Shown here: piece after piece, positions 53,017-61,255 of the stretch
Numbering within the stretch: the first letter of the stretch is position 1
Layout of the letters: every line of letters begins with the position of its first letter
The notes under the pieces: generated by a model
Told to the model about the DNA's origin: nothing
The model's input: only the letters and a program-made list of their open reading frames with translations
Databases searched by the model: none
Program-made: the position numbers and the translations under genes
NCBI GenBank assembly: GCA_964016885.1
Contig: CAXHJY010000973.1
Span: forward strand, 1-64,000
Source: Eledone cirrhosa
Lineage: Eukaryota
Length of the DNA: 64,000 nt
Direction: 5' to 3'

Positions 53017-53064
53017 AAAATGACCGGTTTCGATGGGTCTGCAAAAGCCATCTTTTCAAATGTT
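53017..53064 (-). ncRNA. Minimal hammerhead ribozyme, U3:A8 core variant
   Basis: aacat-TTGAAAA-gatgg..ccatc-GAAA-ccgg-TC-atttt; stem I has one mismatch. Confidence 0.65.
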
Positions 53065-53601
53065 GATTAATATTAAGAAAAATTAATAATAATAAGAGTT
53101 AAAATTTGAGATTTGAAAATTCAAGTATAAAATTCAGTGTGGGGTTTCATAGTAGCTTTCATCTTGGTAGCAGTAAGTTGACTGCGGTGTGTCCCTTTCT
53201 GGTAGTGAATGAGGAATTATTTGTGGAGAGTGGTTTTTTTTAAGGTCAGATTTAGCAATGGCCAGATGACCAGCTGCTGGTCAGTGAGGGGGTGGAAGCA
53301 ATATACATACATATATCTCCATGTGGTCGGTAGGAGAGGGGAGAGTGATAGAAAGGGATTTAGTGCACTTACACCTATATATACACATACCCTCATCCAC
53401 ACACACATACATATACATATATATATATATATATATATATATATATATATAAGGATTAAAATACTGGAGCGTGTTGGAGTTAAACACCCTCTTCGTATTA
53501 TAGAAATGACAGTAAAAGGTATAGCTCAATGTAATTAAACAGAGCCGATGAATTATGAAAGTAAAACAAAGAAGCCTTCAATACATCAAAAGTCTTTATT
53601 A

Positions 53602-53639
53602 GCCAACAATGTTTCGTCCTATTAAGGACTCATCAGGGC
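53602..53639 (-). ncRNA. Canonical minimal type I hammerhead ribozyme
   Basis: gcc-CTGATGA-gtcc-ttaata-ggac-GAAA-cattg-TT-ggc. Confidence 0.85.
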
Positions 53640-55225
53640 AATTAAAACAACAAGAAGTATTATCGGCCAATACAAGCCGAAAACTCCGAAGAATATGGAG
53701 TGTACATACACTAAAGTATTGCAAGATTATGGGTAAAAATATATAATAGAAATATATAATAAAAATCACTAAGGAGGTGTATAACATTTAGAACCATATT
53801 ACAAATATAGTCCAAAGCAAAAAACAAAAAAAACCCTAGAGCTAAACAAAGGTGGTTATATAGAGCGGGAATTATATATAATACCATATAATATAATATA
53901 ATATACTTGTAACAATATTAAAATTACAATAAAAATTAAAAGGTACAATATACATATGTATATATGTACGCACACGTACGCACATATACACATACATCAA
54001 TACACATATCCATCTTCAACAGCACAAATTAAACCTTATTAAGAGTTTAAATATAAATAAGCATGATAGGAATAAAAATAATAATAATAATAATAATACG
54101 TATATCTAATATACATGAGGTAATAATATGATATGATTATAAGTAGCACATATAATATATAATAAACTATACAATTATATACCATATAATATAATATAAT
54201 AGATAATCACCGGTTAATTTACACAAACAATATAGATGTCACAATAATACTATAATAATAATATAATAACATATATAATACATAACATATAATGGCAAGC
54301 AAGTTAACAAATCAATTCATATAGAGTTACAGAGTAGGTGAGAAAAAATATAAATTGTACAATACCCAAAATTATGATGGTACAAAAATATAAACATCTT
54401 ACATGATATATAAAGTTCAACATATCATAATGGTACAATATAATCAACGGTAAGTAATAAGGATCGATAGTACAATAACAAATATAATATATTATAAAAT
54501 AATTAACATAATATAATATATAATTACTTATAATTACAAGGTTGGTAAACAGACATATATGTGGATGAGTGAGTAAGGACCAGACAGTAAATAGAATGCA
54601 CAGTAGTATTAATAAATAAATAAATAAATAAATAGAATCAACCGGAAATTAAAAAAACAAGAACAAAAGTATATACTTAGGTCTCACATACAGTTAAGTA
54701 AAAACTTAGGAAACAACCCCGGTAAATGACTCGAAAACCCTATTTGATAAATTAATATTAAAAATATTTAAAATATCTAATAAGGCAATACAATATTAGT
54801 TGTGGTTTAAGTAATCAAAATTTATAAACGTTAGTATTTAACTACAAATATATATATAAGGAATGAAATTTTCTACTATCATTTACATAACGATATCTAA
54901 AAAACTGACCTAAGCAGAATTATGGTAGGCTAATAGGGACAGAAAAAAAAGAAATGTTTGGAGGATACAAAGGAGCATAAAATCAGTCAATATACTATAT
55001 TAAATAATAGAAAGGAGCGTAAAAGAGGGGGGGGGATTAAATATAATCATAATCTATTTGAAGGGGTTGACAATAAGTTTATGTACGCATGGCGGGGGGG
55101 GGGGGGGGGGTATCTAAACAAGAATCCAAGTAAAATAAAATAAAATAAAATGAAATAAAATAAAATAATGTAAAATATAACATCAGATATATACTCATAA
55201 GGTGTTAATAGTGGTGTTAATAGCG

Positions 55226-55630
55226 GAAGTGTAACTGTAGAGTGAGTGCTAACTGCCCTTTAAACGGTAACTGCCTCTCTAAGAACATCGTCTATGCTTG
55301 CGTAGTTACAACTAATTCCTCTAATAAAACTTATATAGGCTCTACATCTAACACTTTTAAGACTAGGTTTAATTCTCATATCTCTAATTTCAAACATGTT
55401 AAGTTTAAGAATTCTACTTCTTTAGCACACTATATCTGGGATCTTAAGGGGGCTAATATACCATATAGCCTTAATTGGCGTTTAGTAGCACGCTCTAATA
55501 ACCTTTCTACACATACTAAATTTTGTAATCTCTGTATCCTCGAGACACACTCTATAATTTTCTCTAGCGAATCCTTACTTAATAGAAAGTCTGAGATATT
55601 TTCTTCTTACCCCCCACGCTATTTCTAATT
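55226..55630 (+). mobile_element. Penelope-like (Naiad-type) GIY-YIG endonuclease fragment
   Basis: KCNCRVSANCPLNGNCLSKNIVY...YIGSTSNTFKTRFNSH...TSLAHYIWDLK...CNLCILE...LNRKSE. Confidence 0.88.
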
Positions 55631-57972: not shown

Positions 57973-59299
57973 CTACATTTTAAATTTATATTTATATTTA
58001 AACGTTGAGTTCAATCTATGTCTGCAGCAACTGAATAAATTGCTCCTTAAATTAAGGGAATTTTTGGATTTTAATATAAAGAATATCTCCTCCACACAGA
58101 GGTCACATGTCTCAGATGAGGAATTAAAAGGAATCCCTCTTGAGACAATATTCCAAAACATCGAATACCCAACGTTATCATATTTAAGTTGCCAGAGTAA
58201 GCCTGATAGTGAAGTTGAAGATTTTTTGTTTGGATCTGTGAAAGAATTCTTATGATTATTGTAGCGAAGTTTAAATTCTGTCGAGGTGGAACCAACATAG
58301 TTAAAAGAATTTAAGTTAGTTTTAACATTACAATTGTATATTATATTTTTAACTAAGCAATTGTTATTTAACGGACATTTAGATTTATTTCTACAGTTAC
58401 AGTTGTTTAATTGAATATTGTTTTGGTTATTATCGGTATTTTGGTTAGGTTTTAGATTCCTATTATTTATTCTGTTAATATTTTGTGCTAAATTTTTGGT
58501 GGACGAGTAAGTTAATTTTATAGTATGTCTATTAAAAATTGAGTGATATTTATGTGTTCTAGGGAAGCGTTTGTCAAGAACATTAAAAAATAGTTTAGCA
58601 ATGTGGGTTTTAATATTTAGTGAGAAAGGGGGGGCAAACCATATTATATTTCTAGTTCTATTTCTTTTCCGGCTTTTGGAATTATTGTAATGTTTTCTAT
58701 TATAGTTGTTAAAGTTGTTACCGTAATTAAAATTGTTATTATTTTGGTTAGTTTGCCTATTATTATCGATGTACTTAATTTTATCACTATATCCTGCTCT
58801 AGCTAACGCTTCATTGTAACACTGCGCTTTTTCGTCGAAAATATTTTTATTAGATGAAATTCTTGAGATACGTTCTTGAACAGAGTTCACTATAGTATTT
58901 TTAACAGATCTGGGGTGATTAGAGTTAAAATTGACATAATTCAAGTTTTCATTTAGTTTGTGAAATGGATAGTGAAGACATGTGTTGAGATTTAGTGTTA
59001 CATCTAGGAAATTGACTATTCTATGGTTATTCTCTATTTCTATTTTTAGATTAAGGTAATTAAAAAATTGTATAATTTGTTTTCTTTTTCTATTTAGTTC
59101 AGAGTTATTATTTTCAATAAGTAAAAGCATGTTATCACGATATAATCCTCCGGTTACACCTGGTATTTTTCTATGCAGCGAATTAATTATAAATAGGCCC
59201 ACAAGGTCCGTTACCTGAGCTGAGTCAGATGATCCCATAGTAATGTCGAAATTATTATCTCTATCTGCCCTAGTCCATAGTTGGTTATTAAATTCTATC
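57973..59299 (-). pseudogene. 5'-truncated PLE ORF: RT C-terminal half plus GIY-YIG endonuclease; catalytic YRDD appears as YRDN
   Basis: ITMGSSDSAQVTDLVG, GLYRDN, NFLDVTL, SNHP, CNCR..CPLNNNCL..IIY..YVGST..FKLRYNNH, CDLC, CRH. Confidence 0.9.
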
Positions 59300-60920
59300 A
59301 ATTAATTAAGATATTTAATTAATGTATGAAACCTGACGATAAATCTTTCGATTCCTTCAACTTTTTCTTTTAAACCTTCTTCATAAATATAAACTAATGA
59401 TGTAATTAAACTACCCTAAAATGTAGATGCTGCCAATCTATTGAATACATTTTACGCAAGATAAACTTCTATACTAAATATAAGAGCATCCGTAGAACTA
59501 CAGGGTCTCCTAAATCATTTAAATGATTTCTGCTAAATGAGTTTTGTTGAATAATTTTTGGTTTTTTGTTTGCTTTTGATTCTGATTGCTTCTAATGAAC
59601 TTGGCAATATATTGTCAGATAAATTGGAAGGGTAGATTTCTGTGGTTGATATAAGAAGCATACTGTGTTTTTATGGCCCGAGATACTCTAGGGAGTGATG
59701 AAAATATTTTTAACGTTTTGATATTTCTGTGCTGATATATTGATATCTGGTTGTCTCTGTACAAAGGCCATATGTATTAATATGCATATGGAATGATTAC
59801 AGAGTAGATTTTATCTGTCCATGTACCTGTATGTGTGCATACATATATATCTATATGTATGTGTGGGTATAGTTCTGGATATGTTACAGATATGCATAAT
59901 ATTCTATACATGAACGATAATCATGTATGTGAGGGCAAGAATATTAATCGTTTATTTTTTATGTATATATATATAGTAAAATCTTTTATAACACAAGGAA
60001 AAATTTTTTTTGTGAAACAAGAAATTACAGAGTTGATCACGTAAAATCATGGGTATGTCTATAATATCAACTAGAACTTGAGATGACCTTCTCTTTTTCT
60101 CTTTCTTTCCTTTTCCAGAAAGTGCATATGCATGTGTATGTATATACTTATATATTTCCGTATTTTTTGAAGTTTTATCTCAGTTTTGGTACATCGACCT
60201 CAGAATTTTAAACTAAACATATGGTCATTATTGAGCAAAATTATTTTCACACATTATATATCTATGTCTCATTCATGAATATTGATATTTACATTATATT
60301 ACCCAATTCATATGAATTGATAATTCAAATTGATAGGACATAACGTAAAGATGTAAATCTATCATCCCTCTCTCTAGATATAGCTCTTTCTTCTCCTCCC
60401 TCTTTATATATGATGAAGTCTATGTATCTGTTGTTTTAACTTTGCCTCTCAAGTTTCTCTCTTATTTCTCTCTTGATTTTCACCTCCCCCTATATAATTA
60501 TTATTATTTGGTCTACCTCTTTCTTTTTTTTCCCCCCACCTCTATCTTTCTCTCTCTCTGTTTTCTCTTCATTTTTTTATTTCTCTCCGTCTCCTCCCCA
60601 ACTGTCCTTAACACTATAAAGTAAATAATTACAGTACTCCCTCCCTCCTAAATCTCTCAATTTGTATGATGAATTATTATTCATCTGTTGTCTTCAGCTG
60701 CCTCTCTTTTTTCACCTCCTCACTATTTCTCTCTCCCCTATCTCTCTCTATTTCTCTCTGTTTTTCTTTACATACATTTCTTCTTTTTCTCCGTCTTTCT
60801 TTTTAACTGTGCTTAACACTAAATATTTATAAACATCTCACTACCAAACCGGCTTCTTACATAACGGTTGCTCAATATTTATGGTACGTCAAAATTATTT
60901 ATAAAACTGTTTATATATTG

Positions 60921-60986
60921 TATTTTATCTGAAGAAGGCATGCCATATTTTTAATATGGTATCCCCGAAATATGTATAATGAAATA
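60921..60986 (+). ncRNA. Hammerhead ribozyme in the inverted pLTR
   Basis: tattttat-CTGAAGA-aggcatgccatatt-ttt-aatatggtatcccc-GAAA-tatgta-TA-atgaaata; 8-bp stem I including one GU pair. Confidence 0.8.
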
Positions 60987-61217
60987 AATATGGTTTTATA
61001 AATATAGTTTCCATTTGTTTAATATCGTATATATATACATATATATATATATATATATATATATATATACATATATATATTAGAAAGTGAGGTTTTTTTT
61101 ACAAAATGAAAAATAACCGAGGTGTCCTACACGAGTGGAAGTATAAAGAAAAAGGGATGAAATCGAAAATGCAACTGAAGTCTTATTTTTAAAAAAAATA
61201 TATATATTTATTTGGTT

Positions 61218-61255
61218 CCTTTACCGGTTTCGCAGTTCTTCTGCTTTTCAAAAGG
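61218..61255 (-). ncRNA. Minimal hammerhead ribozyme, U3:A8 core variant
   Basis: cctt-TTGAAAA-gcag-aagaa-ctgc-GAAA-ccgg-TA-aagg; all stems pair perfectly. Confidence 0.8.

Follow-up and report, generated by a model that had tools for sequence, protein, structure and literature searches.

Two type I hammerhead motifs, each combining a U3:A8 core with an ACCGGU helix III, lie in a 64,000-nucleotide window of Eledone cirrhosa DNA (the whole stretch analysed here). They are probably hammerhead-shaped marks of the 3' ends of two truncated PLE insertions in (TA)n, and would cut only as pairs of the same family. The preliminary description had reported both motifs, and its coordinates proved to be the ends of helix I (Table 1). 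In motif 1, the core UUGAAAA (53059-53053, minus strand) is followed by a 5-bp stem II (GAUGG/CCAUC), GAAA, CCGG and U16.1, and N17 is C17 at 53022. In motif 2, the same core (61251-61245, minus strand) is followed by a 4-bp stem II (GCAG/CUGC), then by GAAA, CCGG and U16.1, and N17 is A17 at 61222. Core, stem II and helix III are as described; helix I, which has 4 bp in motif 2, is much weaker in motif 1 than had been implied (after 2 contiguous bp comes a C-U mismatch, with two more A-U pairs beyond it). Both motifs have the residues of a type I core (U3, A8, GAAA, U16.1 and H17, here C or A), the helix II closing pair G10.1-C11.1 and a short palindromic helix III of 6 nt. G10.1 directly follows A9 in each, and the extra nucleotide of the CUGANGAH minimal consensus is absent. 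A Watson-Crick 3-8 pair is present in both as U3:A8, as expected if C3U plus G8A is a covariation that preserves it. Both sequences are hammerhead-shaped candidates for self-cleavage.

Table 1. Hammerhead motifs, stubs and neighbouring PLE features in the window
Feature	Position	Strand	Description
Motif 1, type I hammerhead motif	53017..53064	-	U3:A8 core, ACCGGU helix III, GUC site
Motif 1 stub	52913..53406	-	Non-coding; between (TA)n tracts 52874-52912 and 53407-53451
Motif 2, type I hammerhead motif	61218..61255	-	U3:A8 core, ACCGGU helix III, GUA site
Motif 2 stub	61081..61413	-	Between (TA)n tracts 61028-61080 and 61414-62026
Canonical C3:G8 hammerhead motif	53598..53642	-	Helix III ACAUUGU; end of AT-rich tail 53452-55220
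Endonuclease fragment, second Hydra-type PLE	55224..55628	+	CxCX5C linker, Pfam GIY-YIG E=1.3e-4
Decayed canonical-core hammerhead motif	56274..56319	-	In 3' UTR of 57973-59301 element
5'-truncated PLE ORF, Hydra-clade type	57973..59301	-	C-terminal RT part, CxCX5C linker, GIY-YIG-type endonuclease
Inverted copy of 56274..56319 hammerhead motif	60929-60974	+	
Hydra-style canonical hammerhead motif	62177..62215	-	Helix III AGUACU; inside 385-bp palindrome

A PLE origin of both stubs is likely from context, and the motif 1 stub is probably what remains of the 3' end of a PLE after truncation. The proposed PLE lineage gains from the TA tracts and the neighbouring PLE ORFs; neither stub has a PLE protein match, and within the window no ORF could be linked to either stub as its parent. 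Between N17 and the next TA tract lie 109 nt in motif 1 and 142 nt in motif 2. The distances were 109, 142, 153, 141 and 116 nt in five of the seven hammerhead copies measured, and 53 and 228 nt in the remaining two, which are the second copies of inverted pairs; 4.9% of background positions fall in the 100-160 nt band, which was picked after the fact. Beside TA tracts in the window there are also canonical-core hammerheads of five further Penelope-type families, and in four of these families the palindromic helix III is intact. Its two ORF-bearing elements appear to carry canonical-core motifs of their own. An inverted repeat of the 57973-59301 element's 3' UTR occupies 59300-61035, the 55224-55628 fragment is inverted relative to the AT-rich tail, and a mirror copy of the 62177-62215 motif starts at 62293 (plus strand) in the 385-bp palindrome.

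Both neighbouring ORF fragments, as distinct from the stubs, have the Hydra-clade hallmark, a CxCX5C linker before a C-terminal GIY-YIG domain. A Neptune identity for these ORFs was dropped, since this linker defines Hydra. A Pfam search of the 442-aa ORF gave no match; the only named homologues, with 35% identity, belong to an argonaut and a bryozoan, and two homologues show DKT. The parents of the two stubs were probably (TA)n-targeting PLEs such as those of the Hydra clade. Assigning the parents to Hydra itself is guesswork, because all 26 Hydra-clade hammerhead rows in File S2 of Craig et al. 2021 have C3:G8.

The family sampled here, that of motif 2, is dispersed and highly repeated. The motif 2 segment was present wholly or partly in 17 of the 24 runs listed (12 studies), six of which hold at least half its words. 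The 332-bp segment matched 7,935 unitigs in run X1, which may be the same sample as the window, and 3,440 raw reads in X23, and runs X5 and X10 gave two contigs each. RNA runs were absent among the listed holders, which is not informative on expression. Among the variants listed for X1 (40 of 106), no T>C change reached 2% and all five A>G places lay outside the core, from which we infer that U3 and A8 stand at approximately 98% or more of depth. They therefore appear to be fixed rather than decayed, and the double variant is the norm in this family, as had been anticipated. A helix I variant with 3 bp instead of 4 bp accounts for approximately 54% of X1 depth.

For the motif 2 homodimer, the double-hammerhead fold is predicted within 1.4 kcal/mol of the minimum, and the intermolecular A15.1-U16.1 pair has a probability of 0.92. 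For motif 1 this probability is 0.02, the active dimer fold lies 16 kcal/mol above the predicted minimum, and a competing 11-bp fold dominates, suggesting that motif 1 misfolds. One minor new point is a predicted trap in motif 2, in which A17 pairs with U3 (U3-A17 probability 0.59 in the homodimer). If parent copies were transcribed in tandem, two ACCGGU strands would pair, the helix I strands would be exchanged, and cleavage of each copy would follow, after GUC in motif 1 and after GUA in motif 2. The two copies in the window are solo stubs and are probably idle, motif 1 being probably decayed and motif 2 probably slowed by the U3-A17 pair.

The two motifs may instead have been hammerheads of PLE descent that were dead, or nearly so, already in the parent: a founder with two changes would have fixed U3:A8 and spread because retrotransposition would not need the ribozyme. 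The U3-A17 pairing of motif 2 fits this reading, being an analogue of the C3-G17 trap that, according to a passage of PMC3884650, lowers cleavage by a minimal hammerhead at least 300-fold. An anole PLE is likewise described, in a portion of PMC11167929, as inserting in vitro without any effect of catalytic hammerhead mutants. Among the variants listed, moreover, motif 2 copies displayed no extra conservation of the ribozyme (at least 3 variable places in the 38-nt motif versus an expectation of approximately 3.9 at 34 places per 332 nt). However, the flanks of the two motifs are unalignable (101 of 300 shuffles score as well upstream and 9 of 300 downstream, and blastn between the motif-bearing segments gave no match), yet both families keep U3:A8, G10.1-C11.1 and the palindrome. 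Double changes between them preserve pairing at three positions (2.2-1.2, 10.2-11.2 and 10.3-11.3), and U3-A8 is reported to be active in vitro, as cited in a passage of PMC3088659. We therefore regard inactivity in the parent as unlikely.

The two motifs had been called independent, but an independent origin is not supported, as common descent accounts equally well for two motifs whose flanks do not align. Tentatively, and against the odds, both stubs could derive from one old (TA)n-targeting, possibly Hydra-clade PLE lineage that underwent a single U3:A8 switch and kept a working dimeric ribozyme while divergence erased the similarity of the flanks. The abundant family would then have braked itself, as A17, harmless with C3, would compete with A8 for U3.

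Another, rather improbable, reading takes the stubs not as ends of autonomous PLEs but as monomers of a non-autonomous family, either retrozyme or SINE-like. Both stubs are short (330-490 nt) and non-coding, read depth of the motif 2 family is concentrated on approximately 150 nt around the hammerhead, and animal retrozymes, for which derivation from PLEs has been proposed, have type I hammerheads. Within the window, however, neither stub occurs in tandem copies, as a non-LTR retrozyme would. Copies continue 5' of the motif 2 stub (39 unitigs extend past its 5' end with non-TA sequence), and coverage of the family peaks at the hammerhead and declines toward the 5' end, a taper that fits 5' truncation.

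The pair of motifs exceeds chance expectation. A U3:A8 descriptor, composed after the motifs were seen, was applied to 1,500 block-wise dinucleotide shuffles of the 31,159 bases outside repeats: 20 of the shuffles had one match, none had two, and none had a match with ACCGGT. Its weak helix I and dominant competing fold would suit motif 1 being a chance match in AT-rich DNA and motif 2 alone a real hammerhead descendant, but these counts, and a distance to the TA tract like that of other motifs, make such a match very improbable. Single-mutant cores (C3:A8 and U3:G8) had no matches in the window, which holds too few motifs for this to be informative. Rfam models at E<=10 listed neither motif, and the Hammerhead_1 covariance model (RF00163), whose consensus is C3:G8, matched neither; the expectation that CUGANGA-type searches miss such cores was borne out. 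Rfam detected the canonical neighbour at 53598-53642 with 29.1 bits, under the gathering score of 34; over the full window, TA repeats dominated the Rfam output. The motif 2 pattern had no matches in metagenome contigs. A general pattern matched at least 120 loci in public collections, across the 49 of 64 parts covered; among the 120 listed, 14 had a stem II of at least 3 bp, none had a helix I of more than 2 bp, and none matched PLE proteins or either stub. Viral contigs gave 22 pattern matches, and the two better ones (stem II of at least 4 and helix I of at least 2) are regarded as chance.

Finally, that two independent families share the palindrome in order to cleave each other as heterodimers, which was the sole potentially surprising part of the preliminary description, deserves almost no credence: ACCGGU is identical in both and the predicted heterodimer minimum does contain an intermolecular helix III, but the idea fails on base pairing. 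The double hammerhead also swaps helix I strands, and between the families these form only 1 contiguous bp whichever way they are combined. The predicted energy of the active heterodimer fold is -6.5 kcal/mol, versus a minimum of -19.5 kcal/mol. ACCGGU also recurs in two canonical-core Chara PLE hammerheads with no partnership involved (PMC8557442). Our literature search found no paper on heterodimer cleavage or a U3-A17 trap, which is weak evidence of absence. Lunse et al. 2016, the main paper on dimer cleavage, may already cover heterodimers, U3:A8 or ACCGGU.

The preferred reading, same-family dimers of PLE origin, adds one host and two families to a variant core already published in 2011 and, in PLEs, in 2014; the core itself is not new. 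The results confirm that PLE hammerhead counts based on CUGANGA descriptors or on the Rfam model are too low. The abundant motif 2 family offers a possible natural test of cleavage by U3:A8 with A17, which bears on whether PLE hammerheads matter for retrotransposition.

Natural U3-A8 hammerheads were first reported by Perreault et al. 2011, with earlier in vitro activity cited (PMC3088659); they have the same covariation as the motifs described here, and the passage reporting them makes no tie to PLEs. Cervera and De la Pena 2014 (PMC4209133) described U3-A8 in PLE hammerheads, together with palindromic helix III and dimer action. Earlier work has established that U3-A8 takes the place of the C3-G8 pair and is active in vitro, and that those PLE hammerheads whose palindromic helix III is short act slowly, as dimers. 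The U3-A8 examples of Cervera and De la Pena are minimal hammerheads of Schistosoma mansoni Cercyon PLEs, with approximately 1,300 hits (Fig. S3, row S. mansoni(4): UUGAAAAA). These share with our motifs the type I topology, the U3-A8 core, G10.1-C11.1, a short helix I, mostly solo copies and the need for a dimer. In those examples A15.1 and U16.1 flank a palindrome of 2 nt and A9 is followed by an extra base, whereas ours have the 6-nt ACCGGU and no extra base; the host, and probably the PLE clade, also differ. Some published PLE rows likewise have no extra base after A9 (PMC4209133).

PLE variants of Drosophila, Aedes, shrimp and rotifer (PMC4209133) have, as here, a small helix III that is self-complementary and reaches full pairing only as a double hammerhead, and the repeat-type hammerheads of Perreault 2011 Fig. 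S8 (PMC3088659) have the same kind of helix III; the listed examples in both sources have C3:G8 cores, unlike our motifs. Hydra elements, defined by the CxCX5C linker, have (TA)n targets and 3' hammerheads (Craig et al. 2021, PMC8557442), and their targets, hammerhead position near the 3' end and palindromic helix III are as in the two stubs. In File S2, A17 occurs in 12 of the 26 Hydra-clade rows, as in motif 2, whereas C3:G8 occurs in 26 of 26, versus U3:A8 here. The Chara braunii Chlamys-2 and Chlamys-5 PLE hammerheads in the same file have the same ACCGGU helix III as our motifs, but differ in their canonical core, algal host and N-terminal-endonuclease clade.

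Two minus-strand hammerhead motifs, motif 1 (53017-53064) and motif 2 (61218-61255), were located at the positions given in the preliminary description, and both are real. Each has a UUGAAAA core, in which U3:A8 replaces the usual C3:G8 pair. Motif 1 (core at 53059) has a stem II of 5 bp, GAAA-CCGG-UC and a helix I of two contiguous pairs; motif 2 (core at 61251) has a stem II of 4 bp, GAAA-CCGG-UA and a helix I of 4 bp. The stretch from A15.1 to U16.1, ACCGGU, is common to both. When the 31,159 bases of the window outside repeats were shuffled 1,500 times with dinucleotides preserved, 20 shuffles contained one U3:A8 match, none contained two and none had ACCGGT, figures that are optimistic because the descriptor was composed once the motifs were known. 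Neither motif was listed in an Rfam search (E<=10), which does detect a canonical hammerhead neighbour (53598-53642).

Features of the window that bear on the two hammerhead motifs, with other repeats and retroelements
Feature	Position	Strand	Remarks
RT fragment	1430-2506	+	followed by PHD finger (Pfam E=3.8e-6)
Fragments related to 1430-2506	~9675-10130, 15000-17650, 47160-48030, 63100-63700
Canonical-core hammerhead pair	10631 / 11663	- / +	weak motifs, one per arm of an inverted 325-bp repeat (99%; 10477-10800 and 11494-11818)
Canonical-core hammerhead	12955	+	helix III AUGCGCAU, helix I 8 bp; in inverted repeat 12722-13061 (94%) adjoining (TA)n
Satellite	26750-47081		20 kb, 24-bp unit, ~847 copies; open frames >2,000 codons; terminates at RT fragment, ~47100-47750
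Broken non-LTR retrotransposon	48774-52470	-	AP endonuclease (Pfam Exo_endo_phos), RT-like frames; apparent zinc-finger repeats at C-terminal end
Motif 1 stub	52913-53406		short, non-coding, (TA)n tract on each side
Endonuclease fragment joined to tail	53452-55690	+ / -	(-) tail bears a hammerhead
Canonical-core hammerhead	53636		relaxed scans
Broken PLE gene	55224-55628	+	between motifs 1 and 2
5'-truncated Hydra-type PLE	56213-61035		beside 1.7-kb inverted copy of own 3' UTR; 3' UTR unusually long, with decayed canonical hammerhead motif
Canonical-core hammerhead pair, decayed	56319 / 60929		relaxed scans
Broken PLE gene	57973-59301	-	between motifs 1 and 2
Motif 2 stub	61081-61413		short, non-coding, (TA)n tract on each side
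Palindrome	62057-62446		385 bp, near-perfect (99%), encloses the mirror pair below
Hydra-style canonical hammerhead mirror pair	62210 / 62293 (cores)	- / +	helix III AGUACU, helix I 5 bp

The family analysis, made on sequencing reads, covered the stub of motif 2. This stub was found, whole or in part, in 17 of the 24 listed runs (12 studies), with at least half of its words in 6. In run X1, which is possibly the window's own sample and in which depth does not equal copy number, 7,935 unitigs fell on 332 bp of the stub, 2,188 at >=99% and 592 at <90%; run X23 gave 3,440 raw reads on 332 bp, and runs X5 and X10 two contigs each. Read depth is highest near the hammerhead and declines 5'-ward, and 39 unitigs extend beyond the 5' end of the stub into non-TA sequence, the pattern expected from 5' truncation. 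Among the 40 variants listed out of 106, none falls at U3, A8, GAAA, the palindrome or A17, and X23 may carry minor core variants beyond these 40. In X1 no T>C is tallied among the kinds of change, and all five places with A>G are listed and lie outside the U3/A8 core, which suggests that U3 and A8 are each kept at ~98% or more of depth. For this family, the suggestion that the double variant is more than decay was therefore upheld: U3:A8 is the family state, not a decayed CUGANGA. Motif 2 is as variable as its flanks (three listed variable places in 38 nt vs ~3.9 expected). Its main variants cut helix I to 3 bp (~54% of X1 depth), change C11.1 to U at a CpG or disrupt the final stem II pair.

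Since the 6-nt palindrome is too short for a stable hairpin, helix III must be intermolecular. In the double hammerhead, A15.1 of one copy would pair with U16.1 of the other, and by topology the helix I strands would then also come from different copies. We compared predicted energies, with tertiary contacts left out. The active fold of the motif 2 homodimer (-21.1 kcal/mol) differs from its minimum (-22.5 kcal/mol) solely by a U3-A17 pair (predicted probability 0.59). Cleavage of motif 2 may be slow through this pair, by analogy with C3-G17, the proposed cause of the at least 300-fold cleavage loss with G17 in minimal hammerheads (PMC3884650). The active fold of the motif 1 homodimer lies far above the minimum (-7.9 vs -24.1 kcal/mol) because the 3' flank pairs with the core and stem II. 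The heterodimer (-6.5 vs -19.5 kcal/mol) has a helix I of one contiguous bp in either direction. Its energies and short helix I make cleavage between families, which the shared palindrome had been thought to allow, unlikely, although the two RNAs could still anneal via the palindrome. No same-family partner is present near either window copy; both are probably idle.

The endonucleases of the two PLE genes are 45% identical, and the longer gene has 322 homologues. Both contain the CxCX5C linker, the defining mark of the Hydra clade, which is characterized by (TA)n insertion and 3' hammerheads (PMC8557442, section 11 and File S2). The canonical motif at 56319 appears to belong to the 57973-59301 element and that at 53636 to the 55224-55628 element. 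As the PLE genes thus seem to own canonical motifs, the U3:A8 stubs would come from other families with genes outside the window. Position and neighbouring elements suggest a PLE origin of both stubs. The 53452-55690 arrangement resembles an internally inverted insertion.

Relaxed scans of the window revealed five further hammerhead families, every one with C3:G8. Their helices III are palindromes, each different, and several families form inverted pairs, a frequent arrangement of PLE insertions (PMC8557442). The 385-bp palindrome is likely a fold-back PLE end. In five of seven measured copies the cleavage-site position, N17, is separated from the next TA tract by 109-153 nt; in the other two, both second copies of inverted pairs, the distances are 53 and 228 nt. 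Background for the 100-160 nt band, picked post hoc, is 4.9%. Three later-found copies lie 43, 121 and 179 nt from a TA tract. The window as a whole is animal-like DNA with many microsatellites; it also contains 20 kb of a 24-mer satellite and a number of retroelement fragments, among them a non-LTR retrotransposon that we take, by resemblance, to be RTE-like.

The two hammerheads had been called independent. Direct comparison of the stubs gave no alignment, but unalignable flanks do not demonstrate separate origins. Should the motifs be homologous, both partners have changed, with pairing kept, at three positions (2.2-1.2, 10.2-11.2 and 10.3-11.3), which would indicate that the fold has long been under selection. 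Convergence is also possible because both U3:A8 and ACCGGU are found repeatedly among PLEs that are not related, and two sequences alone are insufficient to choose between homology and convergence. Judged by sequence, with the anatomy of such elements and, for motif 2, their repetition, both motifs are probably PLE hammerheads of the dimer type and are predicted to work as such.

Both the variant core and the dimer design have already been published. Natural U3-A8 cores were reported by Perreault (2011), with prior in vitro activity cited (PMC3088659). Cervera and De la Pena (2014) described U3-A8 in Schistosoma mansoni Cercyon PLE hammerheads (~1,300 matches), as well as variants in which helix III is a small palindrome, and showed that dimer cleavage was low; their Fig. 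S3 has U3:A8 in 2 of 56 rows, one being UUGAAAAA (PMC4209133). The model that PLE hammerheads act as dimers through a palindrome is set out in a 2019 review (PMC6765202), and in vitro insertion of an anole PLE was unaffected by hammerhead mutants (PMC11167929). In File S2 of PMC8557442, two Chara PLE hammerheads share ACCGGU with motifs 1 and 2 but have a canonical core, whereas Hydra-clade hammerheads, unlike both motifs, have C3:G8 in 26 of 26 rows and, like motif 2, A17 in 12 of these.
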